A stretch of 64,000 nucleotides of DNA from Clostridiales bacterium (GTDB lineage: Bacteria > Bacillota > Clostridia > Christensenellales > CAG-138): NCBI GenBank assembly GCA_004554165.1, contig SFNQ01000007.1:1220-65219 (forward strand), read 5' to 3'. The position numbers and the translations under genes were made by a program. The notes beneath the pieces were generated by a model that ran no database searches, was not told the DNA's origin, and saw only the letters and a list, made by a program, of their open reading frames with translations. Positions within the stretch are counted from its first letter, which is position 1. Every line of letters starts with the position of its first letter. Of the stretch, positions 1 through 53,744 are shown piece by piece.

Positions 1-1
1 T

Positions 2-355
2 TGTGCCGACAATAACCTCTGCGGAGTAGTTGTTTTCGCCGACCGACATGAGGGCTACTATGTGCCAACGGTTGGCTTGAACGAAGCAACGATCAGCAAA
101 TACATCCAGGACCAGGAACGGGATGATATAGCAGTGGACAAGTTCAGTGTGAAGGAGTACGAAGACCCGTTTACGCAAAAAGCGCCCCTTAAGGGGCGTC
201 AGAGTGTCGAAAAAGTGGCGTTCAGCCACTTTTTCGAGCTTTCACAGGTTTTGCCTCTCGCATTCGCTCCCGGGCGGAAAAACCTGCAAGGTACGAAAAC
301 CTCTGGGGTTTCATCCGTTCTGACGCACTTGTCGTCAGAGCCGGATGGAACATAA
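2..355 (+). CDS. tnpA: IS200/IS605-family Y1 transposase (TnpA), C-terminal fragment cut by the window edge; frame now reads on into an inserted repeat element
   Basis: Frame-2 translation ..GYYVPTVGLNEATISKYIQDQERDDIAVDKFSVKEYEDPF resembles the conserved C-terminus of IS200-type TnpA (GYYVxTVG..YIxxQ). There is no stop until 353-355 because of the insertion at 199. Confidence 0.6.
   Translation, partial: CADNNLCGVVVFADRHEGYYVPTVGLNEATISKYIQDQERDDIAVDKFSVKEYEDPFTQKAPLKGRQSVEKVAFSHFFELSQVLPLAFAPGRKNLQGTKTSGVSSVLTHLSSEPDGT
181..198. repeat. Left copy of an 18-bp target duplication AGCGCCCCTTAAGGGGCG (itself a palindrome)
   Basis: Identical 18-mer at 399-416, directly flanking the repeat element. 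Confidence 0.85.
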
Positions 356-398
356 GGGGCTGCGGCCCCTTATCAACCCCGGGGTTTTTCGACAATCT
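199..398 (+). mobile_element. Structured TIR element, copy 1 (MITE-like, non-coding, family unassigned)
   Basis: About 93% identical by eye to 37638-37881 outside one indel. Ends are AGAGTGTCGAAAAA / TTTTTCGACAATCT (inverted). It has five internal hairpins and is flanked by an 18-bp direct repeat. Confidence 0.8.
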
Positions 399-416
399 AG
401 CGCCCCTTAAGGGGCG
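399..416. repeat. Right copy of the 18-bp target duplication, followed by the displaced tnpA stop (C TAA at 417-420)
   Basis: Identical to 181-198. Joining 198 to 417 gives CGC TAA in the tnpA frame. Confidence 0.85.
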
Positions 417-906
417 CTAAGCAAGATGAGACATCGCAGCTTGAGTTAACGAAAGTCTGCGTCTTTCGACGCTTGTCGGCAACATGGGCTGATAGCCCCA
501 GTGCGAACCATCCGTTTTACGGGTGGATGCGATTTTGAGCCGATGAGAAAAACGTCATCTTTTGTCAGATTCAGTTTGTCCGTGAGGGAGCGGTGAAGTT
601 GTTTTGCCCATCGCTTTTATCGGCGGCTTCAGCCCGCTGTGGTTCAGACAGCAAACGCCCGCGGCGGAAACAGGCTTACGCCTCCTGCGCCGCCTCGCAC
701 CTGCTGTCGTCACGCCCGGAGGAATTTCCCGGAATCTTCCGGGCAACGGCGCTTAACTCCGCCACAACCCGGCCGCCGACGAACGCCTTCGGATTGCCGG
801 TATTCTCCGCTGGGCAATCCTGTATCGGAAAGCCATTGCCATGCACGCATGGCCGCCTCGGGAGATGTGACCAAAGGACGGGAACAGCAGATGGGGGGCA
901 GTCCAC

Positions 907-1323
907 CTATTCCCCGATGATTTTGATCAGCGCCCGCTTATCGCGTCCGCCGTCCATCTCATAGTAGAAGATCTGCTCCCATGGACCAAAATCCAGCCGT
1001 CCGCCGGTAATCGCGCAGACAACCTCGCGCCCCATGATGGTGCGCTTGAGGTGGGCGTCCGCGTTGTCCTCAAAGCCGTTGTGGCGGTACTGGCTGTAGG
1101 GCTTTTCGGGCGCCAGCTTTTCCAGCCAGGCCTCATAGTCCGCGTGCAGGCCGCTCTCATCATCGTTGATGAACACCGAGGCCGTGATGTGCATGGCATT
1201 GACCAGCGCCAGCCCCTCCTGCACACCGCTTTCATCGATGGCGGCCTGAACCTGATCGGTGATGTTGACAAGGCCCCGCCGCCTGTTCAGATGGAACCAA
1301 AGCTCCTTGCGATAACTCTTCAT
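907..1323 (-). CDS. YjbQ/UPF0047 family protein (secondary thiamine-phosphate synthase family)
   Basis: 138 aa, [36 protein letters not shown] is typical of the YjbQ family. Start taken at ATG 1323 rather than the longer track ORF. Confidence 0.85.
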
Positions 1324-1333
1324 TGGAACCGCC

Positions 1334-2182
1334 CTATTCCAGCAGCTCGGAAACGTCCACCAGGGGCGACGCACCGGAGCTTACCTTGGGCAGCTCGCCG
1401 TTCCAGCTCTGAATGGTCTGATACTTGATGAGCAGGTCCGAAAGCGATTCGGTGAGAATCCGGTTGCTTTCGGCGTTGGCCTCCGCCAGAAGCTTGATTT
1501 CGTTGGCTTCGGCCTGGGCCGCAATGATGCGCTTTTCCGCCTCGGTGTTGGCGATGACCAGCGCCTGCTCCTGCTCGGTACGGGTCTTGATGAGGTTCTG
1601 CTCTGCGACCTGCTTGGCCTCGATGGCGTTGATATATTCGGGCGAGAAGTCCCAGTTGATGATGTTCAGCTCGTTGATGAAGATTCCATAGCTGTTGAGC
1701 TTTTCGTTCAGCCCCTCGTCCAGCAGAACGCTGACCTCCGAGCGTGAGCTGACAAGCTCCACTGCCGTATATTTTGCGGTTACGGCCTTGAGCACCTCGT
1801 TCACCGCGGGCGTGATGAGCACATCCTCATATCCAAGGCCGATGTTTTTGTAGAGTCTGGAGCTCTCATCCTTGGAAATGTGGTAGTTGACCGCCACATT
1901 GGTGTTAATGGTCTGCAAATCCTTGGAGAAGGCCTCGGTGGACACATCGAGCTTGACGATGCGGTTGTCCACGATCATGACCTGATGCATGAAAGGAACC
2001 TTGAAGTGCAGCCCCTCCTGCAATACGCCCTCGCTGACCTTGCCGAACGCGAGCACAACGCCCGTATGACCCGCCGGGACAATGGTAAAGCATGAGCTGC
2101 CGATCACCGCGATGAGCACAACCACCGCGACCAGACCGATCAACCGGCCAATGGCAAAGCTGCCATCCTGTTTTCTGAACAT
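1334..2182 (-). CDS. SPFH/band-7 (prohibitin-like) membrane protein
   Basis: N-terminal TM helix followed by an SPFH-like domain and a coiled Ala/Glu-rich tail. GGAGG lies upstream of ATG 2182. Confidence 0.85.
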
Positions 2183-2575
2183 GGTTTCATTCCTCCGCTT
2201 GCATGATCTGTTTTCCTTTAGTATATCACAACGGCGCGCGCCGGTCGATAGGGCGGCTGCCAACGCGGCGGGGAAGTTTCCGCCCGCCCTGTGTTCCTGC
2301 ACAAAGGGGCGACAGGGAGGGCCTGAGAACCCTTGCGAATCCGATTCTCAAAAAGAAGCGGCCGGCGCAGGCAGCGGCGGGTAGTTGGACCACAGGCAAT
2401 GGATGGTTCGCTTCAGCGATGCATGCAGCGCCAGAAGTTCAAACAGCAGGATTCGACTGCATCGCCGTATCCACCGGCAGACAACGAAAGGGCGCGCGGC
2501 GGTTCGCCCCCAGTTTTGGGAGGGAACGCCTGCGCGCCCGCCTTTTTCACGCTTGATCGCGGCCGAAAAGGAAGC

Positions 2576-5128
2576 CTATTTTTTCCTGCTGTACGGCGTG
2601 TCCGAAAGCGGCAGCTCCGTGCGGAGCTTTCCGTCGTACTGGAAGTAGGCGGCGGCGATGGCCGGGGCGGTGGGGATGGAGGTAATCTCGCCGATGCCGA
2701 TGGCGCCGTAGGCCATCCGGAAGGCAGGTTTTTCTACGATACGCGCGTCAATGACGGGAACGTTGGGCGCTTTGAACAGACCCAGCGTGCCGAACTTTGC
2801 CGTGGGGACGCAGTCGGTCAGCGGATATTGCTCCGTCAGCGCATAGCCCATGGACATGACCACGCCGCCCTCGATCTGGCCCTCCACGGAGATGGGGTTC
2901 ACCGCGCGGCCCACGTCATGCGCCGCGATGATGCGCTCGAGTTTGCCGTCCTCGCCCAGGATGGCAACCTGCGTGGCGTAGCCGTAGGCAACGTGGCTTA
3001 CGGGGTTTGGCTTGGGAGAGCCCAGCGGATCGGTCTTTGCAAAATACTCGGCGTAGAACTCCTGCCCTTCCAGCTTGGAGAGTGGCGCGTCCCCCCGCGC
3101 GTCGTTCAGCAGCAGGCAGGCGCGGCGCGCAGCCTCGCCGGTGATGAGCGTCTGGCGGGAGCCGGAGGTGGTGCCGGAGTCCGGCGCGTTGAAGGTGTTC
3201 GCCGGCTCGTAAACGATTTCGTCCCGGGACAGCCCCGTGGTCTCGCCCACGATCTGCACGAGCACGGTGCCAAGCCCCTGCCCGATGCAGGAGGCGCCAG
3301 CGAAGATATGCACCCTGCCGCCCTCCACCAGCAAGCGCACGCGGCCCTTGTCGGGAATGCCCACGCCCACGCCGGCGTTCTTCATCGCGCAGGCAAGGCC
3401 AGCGTACTTTGCGTTTTCAAAGTCCTGGCGTACGGCTTCCAGGGTCTCGACAAGCCCTGTGCTATCGTCGACAATCTGGCCGTTGGGCAGCGTCTGCCCG
3501 GGCCGGATGGCGTTGCGGTAGCGGATTTCCCAGGGGGAGATGCCGAGCTTGTGCGCCATCTGGTTTAGCAGGGTTTCGATGGCAAAGCAGGTCTGCGTTA
3601 CGCCAAAGCCGCGGAAGGCGCCTGCGGGCGGGTTGTTCGTGTAGTAGGCGTAGCCGTCGATTTCAAAATTCTCATAGTTGTAGGGCCCCGCGGCGTGCGT
3701 GCAGGCCCGCTCCAGCACCGGGCCGCCCAGAGAGGCGTAAGCGCCGGTGTCCGCGATGACCTTTGCTCTGACGCCCTGAATAATGCCCTGTTCGTCGCAG
3801 CCCAGCGTGAATTCCATCTCCATGGGGTGGCGCTTGGGGTGGACGATGAGGCTCTCCGCCCGGGTGAGCTTGACCTTGACGGGGCGCTTGGTCAGGAAGG
3901 CAATGAGCGCCGCGTGGTGCTGTACGGTCACGTCCTCCTTGCCGCCGAAGCCGCCGCCCACGAGCTTGTTCTCCACCCAGACCTTTTCCAGCGGCAGGCC
4001 GAGCACAGGCGCCGTTTCAAAGCGGGTGTCGTAGGTGCCCTGATCCGTGGAGTAGATCAGCACGCCGTCATCCTTCGGCAGCGCCACCGCGCACTCCGGC
4101 TCCAGAAAGGCGTGCTCCGTAAAGGGCGTTTTAAAGGTGCCGGATAGCACATGCGCGCTGTTTTGGATGGCGGCGTCCGCGTTGCCGCGGCTCACGTGCT
4201 TGTGGGCAAGAAGGTTGCCGCCCTTGTGCAGGCGCGGCGCGCCCTCGGCCATGGCCTCCGCCGGATTGCGCACAGGCGGCAGCACCTCGTATTCAACCTC
4301 GATGAGCGCCTTTGCCTCGGCGAGAATCTCCGGCGTTTCCGCGGCCACAAGGCAGATGGAATCGCCAAGATAGCGCGTTTCGCCGCCCACAGGGATGAAC
4401 ACGTCCCAGTCCTTGACCAGGTGCCCCACGATGTTCAGGCCCGGAATATCCTCTGCCGTGAACACGCCGACAACGCCCGGGAGCGCGCGGGCCTTTTCCG
4501 TATGGATGGCGAGCACTCTTGCGCGAGGGTACCTGCTGCGCACGGCGCTGCCGTAAATCATGCCCTCATAAGCCAGATCGTCCGGATACTCGCCGTAGCC
4601 CAGCACCTTTTCGCGCACGTCCAGCCGGTGTACCCGCGCCCCCACCTTCCAGGCGGTTTCCTCGGCGGGAACCTGGCCCTCGCGCAGCAGACGCGCGGCG
4701 ATTTTGACCGCCTCGATGATCTTCACATAGCCCGTGCAGCGGCAGATGTTGTTGCGCAGCGCATGGCGGATTTCTTCCTCCGAGGGATCGGCGTTTGTAT
4801 CCAGCAGGGCCTTGGCGGCGATCACCATGCCGGGAATGCAGAAGCCGCACTGCACGGCGCCTGCCTCGCCGAAGGCAAAGGTATAAACGTCCTTTTCAAA
4901 GTCCGAAAGCCCTTCCACGGTGAGAACGTGCCTGCCCTCCAGCTTGTCCGTTTGCTGAACGCAGGCCTTGACCGCCTTGCCGTCGATGAGCACGGTGCAG
5001 GTGCCGCAGGCGCCCTCCGAGCAGCCGTCCTTCACGGAGGTCAGGTGCAGCGTATCGCGAAGGTAGCGCATGAGGCGCTGGTTGTTTTCCACCGTAACGG
5101 CTTTGCCGTTGACAAAAAAGCTGGCCAT
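2576..5128 (-). CDS. Molybdopterin-dependent hydroxylase with N-terminal 2Fe-2S domains (XdhD / selenium-dependent molybdenum hydroxylase-like)
   Basis: 850 aa. The N-terminus has CSEGACGTCTV and CGFCIPG..CRCTGY ferredoxin motifs, followed by an aldehyde oxidase/xanthine dehydrogenase Mo-binding domain. It sits downstream of ygfK and ssnA as in E. coli. Confidence 0.9.
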   Translation of the reverse strand: MASFFVNGKAVTVENNQRLMRYLRDTLHLTSVKDGCSEGACGTCTVLIDGKAVKACVQQTDKLEGRHVLTVEGLSDFEKDVYTFAFGEAGAVQCGFCIPGMVIAAKALLDTNADPSEEEIRHALRNNICRCTGYVKIIEAVKIAARLLREGQVPAEETAWKVGARVHRLDVREKVLGYGEYPDDLAYEGMIYGSAVRSRYPRARVLAIHTEKARALPGVVGVFTAEDIPGLNIVGHLVKDWDVFIPVGGETRYLGDSICLVAAETPEILAEAKALIEVEYEVLPPVRNPAEAMAEGAPRLHKGGNLLAHKHVSRGNADAAIQNSAHVLSGTFKTPFTEHAFLEPECAVALPKDDGVLIYSTDQGTYDTRFETAPVLGLPLEKVWVENKLVGGGFGGKEDVTVQHHAALIAFLTKRPVKVKLTRAESLIVHPKRHPMEMEFTLGCDEQGIIQGVRAKVIADTGAYASLGGPVLERACTHAAGPYNYENFEIDGYAYYTNNPPAGAFRGFGVTQTCFAIETLLNQMAHKLGISPWEIRYRNAIRPGQTLPNGQIVDDSTGLVETLEAVRQDFENAKYAGLACAMKNAGVGVGIPDKGRVRLLVEGGRVHIFAGASCIGQGLGTVLVQIVGETTGLSRDEIVYEPANTFNAPDSGTTSGSRQTLITGEAARRACLLLNDARGDAPLSKLEGQEFYAEYFAKTDPLGSPKPNPVSHVAYGYATQVAILGEDGKLERIIAAHDVGRAVNPISVEGQIEGGVVMSMGYALTEQYPLTDCVPTAKFGTLGLFKAPNVPVIDARIVEKPAFRMAYGAIGIGEITSIPTAPAIAAAYFQYDGKLRTELPLSDTPYSRKK

Positions 5129-36997: not shown

Positions 36998-37141
36998 TTC
37001 GCATCGGCATGTTTGTTACCTTCTTCAAAAACCCACAAAATCTGTGGGATTTTTTTCATAATAAACCTGTACAAATTTCCAGTCATATTTCGGCGAAATG
37101 CGCACAAATTAGAACCACATCCGAAAAAGGAGGTGAATACG

Positions 37142-37333
37142 ATGGCACGAAACGGCGCATTGGTTCCTGAAGCGAAGTCCAAGATGAACAGTCTGAAGAC
37201 CGAGGTTGCGAACTCTCTGAACGTCAACCTGCAGCAGGGCTACAATGGCAGCCTGACCTCGCGTGAGGCGGGTTCCATCGGTGGCGAAATGGTGAAGCGC
37301 ATGATCGCTTACGCGGAAAACAACATGAACTAA
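37142..37333 (+). CDS. Small acid-soluble spore protein, alpha/beta type
   Basis: 63 aa, ..LVPEAKSKMNSLKTEVANSLNV..SREAGSIGGEMVKRMI.. is the SASP signature. AAGGAGG is the RBS. Confidence 0.9.
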   Translation: MARNGALVPEAKSKMNSLKTEVANSLNVNLQQGYNGSLTSREAGSIGGEMVKRMIAYAENNMN

Positions 37334-37403
37334 ACCATGAGTGACAGCCGGCGCAGCAAACTGCCAGGCAAAGAATAATACATGGAAGAAAGGAGTACCG
37401 AAC

Positions 37404-37595
37404 ATGGCCAGAAACGGAGCACTGGTTCCTGAAGCGAAGTCCAAGATGGACAGCCTCAAGACCGAGGTTGCGAACTCTCTGAACGTTAACCTCAAGCAGG
37501 GCTACAACGGCGACCTGACCTCGCGCGAAGCGGGTTCTGTCGGCGGCGAGATGGTGAAGCGCATGATCGCTTATGCGCAGACCAACATGAAATAA
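37404..37595 (+). CDS. Small acid-soluble spore protein, alpha/beta type (tandem paralogue)
   Basis: 63 aa, near-identical to the upstream copy. Confidence 0.9.
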   Translation: MARNGALVPEAKSKMDSLKTEVANSLNVNLKQGYNGDLTSREAGSVGGEMVKRMIAYAQTNMK

Positions 37596-37612: not shown

Positions 37613-37637
37613 GGGGCCGGCGCTCATGCGCCGGCCT
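37613..37637. repeat. Left copy of a 25-bp target duplication GGGGCCGGCGCTCATGCGCCGGCCT (contains a 9-bp-stem hairpin)
   Basis: Identical 25-mer at 37882-37906. Lies 18 nt after the SASP stop. Confidence 0.85.
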
Positions 37638-37881
37638 CAGAGTGTCGAAAAAGTGGCTGAACGCCACTTTTTCGAGCTTTCACAGGTTTTGCCTCTCCCA
37701 TTGTCTCCCGGGCGGCAAAACCCGCAAAGTACGAAAACCTCCGGGTTTTCATCCGTTCTGACGCACACCCCCCAGGGGGCCTTCTCTTGCCCCTGCGGGG
37801 CAATTCACCTTGTGTCGTCAGAGCCGGATGGAACATAAGGGGCTGCGGCCCATTATCAACCCCGGGGTTTTTCGACAGGCT
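37638..37881 (+). mobile_element. Structured TIR element, copy 2 (with a ~45-nt expansion in one hairpin loop)
   Basis: Collinear with 200-398. Same termini (CAGAGTGTCGAAAAA / TTTTTCGACAGGCT). Flanked by a 25-bp direct repeat. Confidence 0.8.
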
Positions 37882-37906
37882 GGGGCCGGCGCTCATGCGC
37901 CGGCCT
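37882..37906. repeat. Right copy of the 25-bp target duplication
   Basis: Identical to 37613-37637. Confidence 0.85.
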
Positions 37907-38127
37907 GCTGCATGCCGAAACAGGGGCCTGGCGGCGCCTGCTCCGCTCACTCCGGATTTTGCGGCGCCGGTTTCCGGTGGGCAGGGGCAGCCGGGAAGGG
38001 AAGCAGACGTCTTGCCGGCGTTTCAGCGGCGCGGCGGCTCCGAGTCTGCAAGCCTGCGGACGGAATTGCCGCCCACAAAGGGCGCGGTGGAAACCACGAA
38101 GCCGGATCCCGTCCGGCGCAAAGGGTC

Positions 38128-39168
38128 TCAAAAGCCCTTTTCCACCGTGAAATCCAGCGATTCGCCCGTTTTCCTGTTCACATGATAACAATCCCGGTAG
38201 GGCGAGTAGGTAACGATTTCGATGCTGCGCGACAGGGGGTCAAAGCGCAGAAGGCGAAGAAAACCGTAGGAGGCGCTGCCCTTCAGGTTAAACATCATTG
38301 CGCAGACCCTGCGCTCCGCCGTACCGTCGCCATCGTCATCATAGGACTCGTAGCGCGTGGAGACGCCGCTGCTGTGGCCGCAAAGCACCAGGCGAACATT
38401 GGGGTTGGCGGCGACGATGCGCTCCTGGTTTTCCCGGCTTTTCTTGAAGGTTTCGCCCTTGCCGTCCATATACCGGTGAAACAGCACAATGCCCACGCGA
38501 TCCCGGTGCGCTTGCAGAACCGCGTCGATCCAGTCGAAAGCGCCCTCAAACTGCCGCGTTGCGTCAAAGCCTACGCCAAGGACGATAAAGTCCGTGCCGC
38601 CGGCAGAGAACAGGTCGTAGAACACCGCGCCGTCTCCAAACTTCCGCTCCGGTGGAAAATCGTTCAGAAAGTCGCAGTGCGTGTAACCCTCATAGTTTTG
38701 CGCGCGCACGCCGATGTCATGGTTGCCTGCCACGGGATAGAAGGGGATTTTCCCGCGGAATTTTTGCAGAGCCAGATCAAAATTGTCCCACTCCCAGCTC
38801 TTAAAACCATTGTCCACAATATCGCCGGTATGGAACACGCCGATGATGTTCTCGGTCTCAATTTTTGCGCTAATCCAGTCGCCCATGCTGTCCAGCGCAT
38901 CCGGCACATGGTAGCTCAGGGCCTGCGTGTCCGTCATCCAGACAAAGGAAAAGGGCGTTGGCTGGGGCGAAGGGGAGGGCGAAGGGGAGGACGAAGGGCC
39001 GGGGGCGGGGCTTACCTGCACGGGGGCAGGGCTTTCCTGAACGGAATCGGCCGGAGCCGAAGGCGCGGGAGCCGCCGCCGGAGCGCTCTTGGCGCAGGCG
39101 CAGCAGAGCAGGCACAGCGCCAGTAAGGCCATAACGATTGGGGAGAGGGTGGGTCGGCGATGCTGCAA
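38128..39168 (-). CDS. Calcineurin-like metallophosphoesterase lipoprotein
   Basis: Lipobox LCCAC, a Pro/Ser-rich linker, then GD..GDIVDNG..GNHD motifs. TTG start sits after GGAGGA. Confidence 0.8.
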
Positions 39169-53548: not shown

Positions 53549-53744
53549 GGGAGCTCGAAAAAACCTGGATTGTCAAGGGCCGCAGCCCCGGACCTTCCAT
53601 CCGCCGCTGGGGGCCTGTACGTCAGAAGGGATGATCCCCCTCGGGGGGTTCCCTTTTTCCGGTTTTGCCGCCATGAAACGTGCAGGGATTTTGGGCAAAA
53701 GCTGGTCTTTCAAAAAAGTCCGTCCGGACTCTTTTGACAGGCTG
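53549..53744 (-). mobile_element. Structured TIR element, copy 3 (diverged, inverted orientation)
   Basis: Collinear blocks match the reverse complement of copies 1/2: TCGAAAAA, GGGCCGCAGCCCC, TTCCATCCG, GTCAGAAnGGATGA, GGTTTTGCCGCC, GGCAAAA, AAAAAGT..ACT.TTT.GACA. Two hairpins are kept by compensatory changes. Confidence 0.6.

Follow-up and report, generated by a model that had tools for sequence, protein, structure and literature searches.

Small mobile elements that insert at stem-loops and duplicate them in an uncultured Clostridia lineage

The first few hundred base pairs of the stretch of DNA analysed here (64,000 nucleotides of contig SFNQ01000007.1, hereafter the window) raise the question of whether the end of an IS200-type tnpA gene is interrupted by a second mobile element and, if so, of what kind. 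A sequence-only reading had proposed that a 200-bp segment between direct repeats is a genuine insertion with target duplication in the terminal palindrome of tnpA, and that its excision restores the tnpA stop codon. The repeat, AGCGCCCCTTAAGGGGCG, is present at 181-198 and again, as an exact copy, at 399-416 (both + strand; 18 bp, 0 mismatches, chance expectation 0.00 in 100 shuffles). The segment between the repeats has the boundaries proposed: it spans 200 bp at 199-398 (+ strand), starts with T-CAGAGTGTCGAAAAAGTGGC and ends with GGGGTTTTTCGACAATCT. Its left terminal inverted repeat (TIR), CAGAGTGTCGAAAAA, lies at 200-214, its right terminal repeat ends ...TTTTTCGACAATCT at 398, and the left 18-bp repeat folds into a hairpin with a dG of -11.3 kcal/mol. 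The tnpA sequence upstream (Y1_Tnp; 47-178, + strand) ends in the codons GAA GAC CCG TTT ACG CAA(176-178) AAA GCG CCC CTT AAG GGG CG|T. Translation confirmed that its frame (...KEYEDPFTQKAPLKGR) enters the segment, hereafter copy 1, giving an ORF at 62-355 with a TAA stop at 353-355; an exact look-up of this 97-aa tnpA-element fusion retrieved no record.

Searching public proteins with the tnpA fragment identified element-free relatives. L004, the contig that encodes one of them (P0002), carries an IS200-like copy with 95% amino acid identity that reads ...CCGTTTACGTAAAAAGCGCCCCTTAAAGGGCGTTAAGTAAGATGAGACATCGCAGC, a single hairpin with no element, and its junction, ...CCGTTTACG TAA AAAGCGCCCCTTAAAGGGCGTTAAGTAAGATGAGACATCGCAGCTTGAGTT, corresponds to window 166-198 joined to 417-450. 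The paralogous IS copies in L004, L005 and L006 all have the single hairpin and lack the element, so the 200 bp are not carried by all homologous tnpA copies. In silico deletion of 199-416 reproduced the predicted ...GGG CGC TAA, and L004 also has an in-frame TAA after KGR, as expected by the earlier reading for intact copies with a single palindrome. However, the closest intact-ended relatives (P0002, P0003 and P0011) have the C-terminus ...EDPFT*, and the closest element-free tnpA stops ten codons earlier, with TAA where the window has CAA at 176-178. Moreover, the base following the right repeat varies between strains (GCGCTAAG, GCGTCAGG or GCGTTAGG), so the restored stop is strain-specific and a weak argument for insertion.

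The location of the target within the IS200-like element also needed revision. Homology to the IS copy in L004 runs ~117 bp beyond the hairpin, to ~534, so that window 417-534 (+ strand) represents the rest of the IS200-like right end, including the subterminal CCGTTTTACGG hairpin. Because the IS homology extends this far, the target is not the end of the IS but a hairpin that directly follows the ORF: copy 1 is nested in an IS200-like element, as had been claimed, but the hairpin is not the terminal palindrome of that element.

The orthologous chromosomal locus was fetched via the neighbouring yjbQ gene from ten independent assemblies. All ten, which are short-read assemblies, contain the hairpin-element-hairpin arrangement and, after it, the right end of the IS, differing by substitutions at strain level; copy 1 is therefore old, fixed in the species and no assembly artefact, which disposes of the concern that the junction might be misassembled. 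Taken together with the one-hairpin empty site in L004, these junctions establish a real insertion with target duplication: copy 1 is an old, species-fixed insertion into the hairpin that follows the ORF of a decayed IS200-like element, and the 50 codons by which tnpA seems to be extended are incidental to it. What the earlier reading did not include is that a complete hairpin is duplicated, the family being one that targets hairpins.

The IS200-like element itself has a separate history. Window 1-46 is unrelated to tnpA, homology to relatives starting only at ~47, and is identical in contig L051, which is 100% identical to window 1-2500 and in which unrelated sequence replaces the tnpA 5' part. 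In L051 the sequence of window 1-46 is part of a region with a 254-aa ORF and a phage-integrase gene fragment. A separate rearrangement has therefore truncated the IS200-like element at ~47, and other strains have a longer, but frameshifted, tnpA at this locus; the tnpA in the window is an already decayed, truncated remnant. A 573-bp ENA contig (L007) has the same left tnpA-hairpin-element junction as the window and another terminator (ACAAGCCCGAAGGGTTGTTTT) as its right flank, and has either arisen by recombination of two copies of the element or is a short chimera.

The earlier reading had spoken of the same element, and BLAST and a profile search located two further copies in the window, at 37638-37882 (+ strand, copy 2) and, diverged, at 53550-53744 (- strand, copy 3). 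Copy 2 is 245 bp long, shares 75% identity with copy 1 (BLAST) and is flanked on both sides by GGGGCCGGCGCTCATGCGCCGGCC(T). Its left hairpin copy (GGGGCCGGCGCTCATGCGCCGGCCT; 37613-37637, + strand) lies downstream of a gene for a small acid-soluble spore protein (SASP), and its right hairpin copy occupies 37883-37906 (+ strand), with the G at 37882 common to the terminal CTG of the element. Using the SASP protein, we identified ten conspecific contigs spanning this site. Three of them (L034, L039 and L042) are filled, with hairpin, element and hairpin in succession; the other seven (L035-38, L040, L041 and L043) have a single hairpin that leads directly into GCTGCATGCC. What separates filled from empty alleles is thus exactly one element together with a single 24/25-bp hairpin. 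These alleles, present or absent among strains of one species, are the cleanest proof of insertion, and they show that the family is mobile.

Two side observations concern the copy 2 region. Window 37139-37595 contains two tandem alpha/beta-type SASP genes, and the host therefore belongs to a spore-forming Clostridia lineage. Copy 2 also carries, at the tip of stem P3b (~37767-37812), an extra two-hairpin module of ~45 nt (ACCCCCCAGGGGGCCTTCTCTTGCCCCTGCGGGGCAATTCACC) that is identical in an element of another subfamily on an unrelated contig (L032, ~3134-3378); the shared module suggests that copies have recombined with one another or that it is itself a mobile insert, smaller still. Copy 3 lies directly downstream of pgi and is old and diverged, with no flanking duplication (nhmmer E = 6.8e-33). 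Its hairpins have been kept by compensatory changes, the P1 stem having gone from GTGGC/GCCAC to GTCCG/CGGAC.

All young copies share the same 15-bp TIRs, 5'-CAGAGTGTCGAAAAA ... TTTTTCGACAGRCTG-3', the two ends being CAGAGTGTCGAAAAA and, in inverse, CAGYCTGTCGAAAAA. In the window, the inverse of CAGAGTGTCGAAAAA is found at 385-399 and 37868-37882, and the terminal repeats give 9 matches compared with 1.3 expected, essentially only at element ends. Copies range from 199 to 245 bp and contain only spurious ORFs and no transposase gene; three are present in the window and up to three per 20 kb in related contigs.

To follow the family beyond the window, we used a spurious minus-strand ORF inside copy 1 (222-395) as a query against public proteins. 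At least 126 public "protein" clusters (among P0020-P0139; 50-99 aa) are spurious element ORFs, and some of their source records name Christensenellales. Past ...KVAFSHFFDTL the tails of these clusters are all different and encode short palindromes; each cluster is therefore an element located elsewhere, and the insertion sites are many. Long spurious ORFs also run from the element into its flanks in the high-GC window, at 37624-37950 (- strand) and 37810-39126 (+ strand). Scanning for the pattern GGATGGAANNNNNGGGGCTGCGGCCC gave one true copy (L003) and two chance matches in genome contigs, one distant relic (L009) and one chance match in metagenome contigs, and none in viral contigs; a search with a left-end hairpin pattern added one truncated copy, from a viral contig (L033), and no plasmid or phage matched the element by BLAST. 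The relic in L009 (a JGI metagenome contig, 3368-3527) keeps hairpins P2 and P4, lacks P1 and the terminal repeats, and occupies the gap between two genes of like orientation, immediately upstream of a ribosome-binding site. Another repeat family, ~250 bp long with TIRs TACCATCAGTTGACAAG, is present in contigs of the element set (L022, ~2530-2790; L029, ~3230-3445), and in L022 it occupies the position of the element copy in L020.

Contigs fetched for several of the clusters provided a census of insertion sites, in which contigs often end inside the element, as would be expected of a repeat. At nine young sites, repeats of 18-26 bp flank the element and abut both of its ends. Each of these repeats is different in sequence, and each folds end-to-end into a GC-rich hairpin (dG -9 to -23 kcal/mol). 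The duplication lengths (18, 20, 20, 23, 24, 24/25, 25 and 26 bp) track hairpin size; against an exact fit, repeat boundaries are sometimes 1-4 bp inside the maximal palindrome (L028 and L031) or asymmetric by 1-2 nt (copy 1). No shared target motif was found when the nine sites were compared. Most young targets are intrinsic or bidirectional terminators, among them those behind rpsR, an amino-acid permease gene and parB, and one is the terminator of a CDP-alcohol phosphatidyltransferase gene, held in common with the convergent trkH. One terminator was used twice, independently, in opposite orientations and by different subfamilies (L029 at 3651, + strand, versus L030, L031 and L032, - strand). 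Five older copies, copy 3 of the window among them, have no flanking repeat. In spacers between tandem genes, orientations read from the gene tables were 4 co-oriented versus 5 antisense; an arrangement in which the element is always co-oriented with the upstream gene, between stem and T-tract, was rejected, since no bias was left once more sites had been seen. Taken together, insertion occurs at GC-rich stem-loops, mostly intrinsic terminators, that have no primary sequence in common, and every young insertion has a complete stem-loop of 18-26 bp on both sides.

We consider that the segment at 199-398 is probably a copy of a ~200-bp non-autonomous DNA transposon, or MITE (miniature inverted-repeat transposable element), that inserts at hairpins and duplicates them through a transposase acting in trans. 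Mobilization in trans as DNA, by cutting or copying, is favoured because the copies have TIRs and target duplications, occur in both orientations and have no common target sequence. In a DDE-type reaction, a duplication would arise when each 3'-OH joins the target on its own strand, at the 5' side of what becomes the duplication. For this family, the transposase would recognize the target as an extruded cruciform, the two element 3'-OH ends would join the 5' foot of the hairpin, one on each strand, in a staggered strand transfer, and gap repair would then copy the whole hairpin, such that the length of the duplication would equal that of the hairpin. Recognition of a cruciform (or hairpin) is suggested because the points of attack are 18-26 bp apart in B-form DNA and would be side by side at a cruciform junction whatever the stem length. 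Terminators would offer safe landing sites between genes, and hairpin P1 of the element could replace the T-tract lost by the upstream hairpin copy.

The enzyme family, the cruciform intermediate and the effect on termination are all matters that we infer, the enzyme and its chemistry because neither an autonomous partner nor any transposase with matching ends turned up in the window, in ~0.3 Mb of related loci or in collections of plasmids, phages and viruses; a terminal-repeat scan of the window and the loci picked up element ends only, and Y1_Tnp is the one transposase type listed in the loci's gene tables. Rather more tentatively, and with doubts of our own, we suggest that the mover may be a transposase from a family not yet described, or from a branch not yet characterised, and may read only DNA shape and attack the cruciform four-way junction, the duplication length being set by the hairpin, and that the five-hairpin core of the element may be functional cargo, as an RNA or single-strand DNA module.

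In copy 1, the hairpins of that core are P1 (207-237), P2 (247-285), P3a (295-312), P3b (314-345) and P4 (352-373), and the RNA fold has an energy of -100 kcal/mol, with z = -9.35 on the + strand versus -6.4 on the - strand. Across 15 diverse copies, 96% of the cells in the five helices are paired and compensatory change is seen in 18 of 51 pairs, a level that none of 500 shuffles reached and that slid controls fell far below. G-U exceeds A-C by 50 to 8, favouring the + strand, and together with the better + strand fold this excess indicates that any constraint acts on that strand. A strand-biased, covarying core is not obviously needed by a pure DNA parasite, and the transposon model alone leaves it unexplained.

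These properties would be expected if the element served above all as a structured RNA module with a function, for example as a cassette for a 3'-UTR, a terminator or a small RNA, spread by mobility and with its hairpins kept by selection on the transcript. We regard this as a possibility, albeit one on the unlikely side. Older copies that have no flanking repeats keep the structure in operon spacers (copy 3 of the window, L029 at 11979, L044 at 13305, L045 at 7197, L046 at 5379, and L009), and on the minus strand a promoter-like TTGATA-N16-TATGTT spans P4 in both copy 1 (349-376) and copy 2 (37832-37859), with P1 downstream as a possible terminator. P1 consists of an A-tract, a GC stem and a T-tract and, by its sequence, looks like a bidirectional terminator, so that a minus-strand RNA of ~140 nt is conceivable; the TTGATA and TATGTT hexamers also form the AT-rich base of the P4 stem. 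However, Rfam gave nothing at gathering score across the whole window and only weak matches, none of them accepted, at a relaxed E-value; TD-2 RNA (RF03162) was rejected at 20.6 bits (E = 0.8, minus strand), below its gathering score of 48.7 bits. A simple role as a 3'-UTR is hard to square with the mixed orientation relative to adjacent genes, part of the P2 covariation reflects a swap of the whole module between subfamilies, and DNA-level processes can keep palindromes symmetric. An RNA module would also leave the terminal repeats and target duplications unexplained, and so supplements the transposon reading without replacing it. As a separate observation, the P1 loop is inverted between copies, GTTCA in copy 1 (220-224) being TGAAC in copy 2 (37658-37662) and most others, which is a DNA-level flip of the hairpin loop.

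The duplications themselves, at 18-26 bp of palindromic unit, resemble the repeat duplication of Cas1-Cas2 at spacer integration, and no DDE partner was found, so a different integrase of Cas1/casposase-like or still unknown type could have made long staggered cuts on either side of the palindrome. This seems improbable to us, since no cas1 or casposon gene is present in any locus table examined, casposon target duplications are reported as fixed at 14-15 bp unlike those of 18-26 bp here, and a DDE enzyme is favoured by the TIRs and by published precedent. Insertion through a single-stranded or RNA intermediate recognizing the terminator hairpin on one strand, by an IS200/IS605-type Y1 enzyme acting on a palindrome-associated element or by a group IIC intron-like route, is very improbable and already largely refuted by the duplications. 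Both of those systems use hairpins, an IS200-type tnpA adjoins copy 1, and the G-U bias indicates one strand; yet both lack the target duplications and TIRs that are present at every young site, the same hairpin was used in both orientations, a 200-bp element with no ribozyme match is far from an intron, and no tnpA is found near copy 2 or most other sites. Finally, that the 200 bp are the conserved right end of the IS200-like element, present as they are in ten of ten conspecific assemblies, or an assembly artefact, is already refuted by the element-free paralogous IS copies in L004, L005 and L006, by insertions of the element behind a range of unrelated genes (SASP, rpsR, pgi, trkH, parB and others), the duplicated hairpin differing from one to the next, and by the recurrence of the junctions with independent assemblers.

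The hairpin-targeting, hairpin-duplicating MITE family is abundant in an uncultured lineage of gut-type Clostridia, where it is still polymorphic, and it provides a natural data set for structure-directed transposition, in which each young site examined has one whole stem-loop duplicated and matching empty alleles exist. Each insertion turns one terminator into a hairpin, the element, and a hairpin with T-tract, and so rewrites 3' UTRs. The copies can serve as presence/absence strain markers for this lineage. For annotation, the at least 126 public clusters are spurious proteins, and the element both extends real ORFs, such as tnpA here, and breaks metagenome contigs. The partner enzyme, once identified, could be a cruciform-targeting transposase.

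Among known systems, the family has the traits of MITEs, namely TIRs, flanking duplications with single-copy empty sites, small size, lack of a transposase gene and many dispersed copies. Bacterial MITEs such as bcr1 of the Bacillus cereus group, Correia elements and RUP have hairpins conserved through compensatory changes (reviewed in PMC3184786), and the present element resembles them in being small, ORF-less, multicopy and strain-polymorphic, with TIRs, flanking direct repeats and maintained hairpins. They differ in having fixed duplications of 2-9 bp at sequence-defined sites, whereas the duplications here are 18-26 bp, variable and always a hairpin. Unusually long target duplications are shared with the IS1202 family, in which they measure 27-28 bp in the IS1202 subgroup and 15-17 bp in the ISTde1 subgroup (bioRxiv 10.1101/2022.12.17.520857). 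Membership of that family was rejected, since its lengths are fixed per subgroup (5-6, 15-17 or 27-28 bp) and unrelated to hairpins, while here they follow stem-loop size continuously; no IS1202-type transposase was seen in the loci examined. IS200/IS605-derived elements have neither TIRs nor target duplication and insert 3' of a fixed tetra- or pentanucleotide; a palindrome-associated element of this derivation was rejected because TIRs and 18-26-bp duplications are present and the targets have no common motif. Insertion beside terminator stem-loops as a safe harbour is shared with group IIC introns, which are located just after terminator stems (PMC1702495). However, these introns comprise a ribozyme and a reverse transcriptase in 0.7-2 kb, are strand-specific and produce no target duplication, and the element has no Rfam intron match.

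Palindromic or stem-loop targets, a trait of the IS1182 family, are present at 9/9 young sites. In ISfinder, the duplications of this family range over 0-60 bp, and that of a hairpin would fit. Some of its members are described as targeting palindromes (Siguier et al. 2015, as cited in PMC5678879 and PMC4923244). Staphylococcal IS1272 and TnSha1, of the same family, target stem-loops, mostly terminators, by structure and not sequence, use the same hairpin repeatedly and in both orientations, and delete all or part of the stem-loop without duplication; attack on a cruciform has been put forward as a model of how they insert (PMC5678879, PMC4923244). The present element shares with them the stem-loop and terminator targets, the use of one hairpin in both orientations and short TIRs. 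In contrast, it has no transposase gene, its host is an uncultured high-GC Clostridia lineage rather than staphylococci, and the deletion typical of IS1272 and TnSha1 is absent, the stem-loop being duplicated instead. Attack at the 5' foot, pathway b in Fig. 13 of Wan et al. 2017, predicts that the entire stem-loop becomes duplicated and is given there only as a possibility (PMC5678879); in the literature found, such duplication exists only as this hypothetical branch of the IS1272 model. The nearest known behaviour is that of IS1272 and TnSha1, and the mechanism proposed for the element described here would correspond exactly to pathway b.
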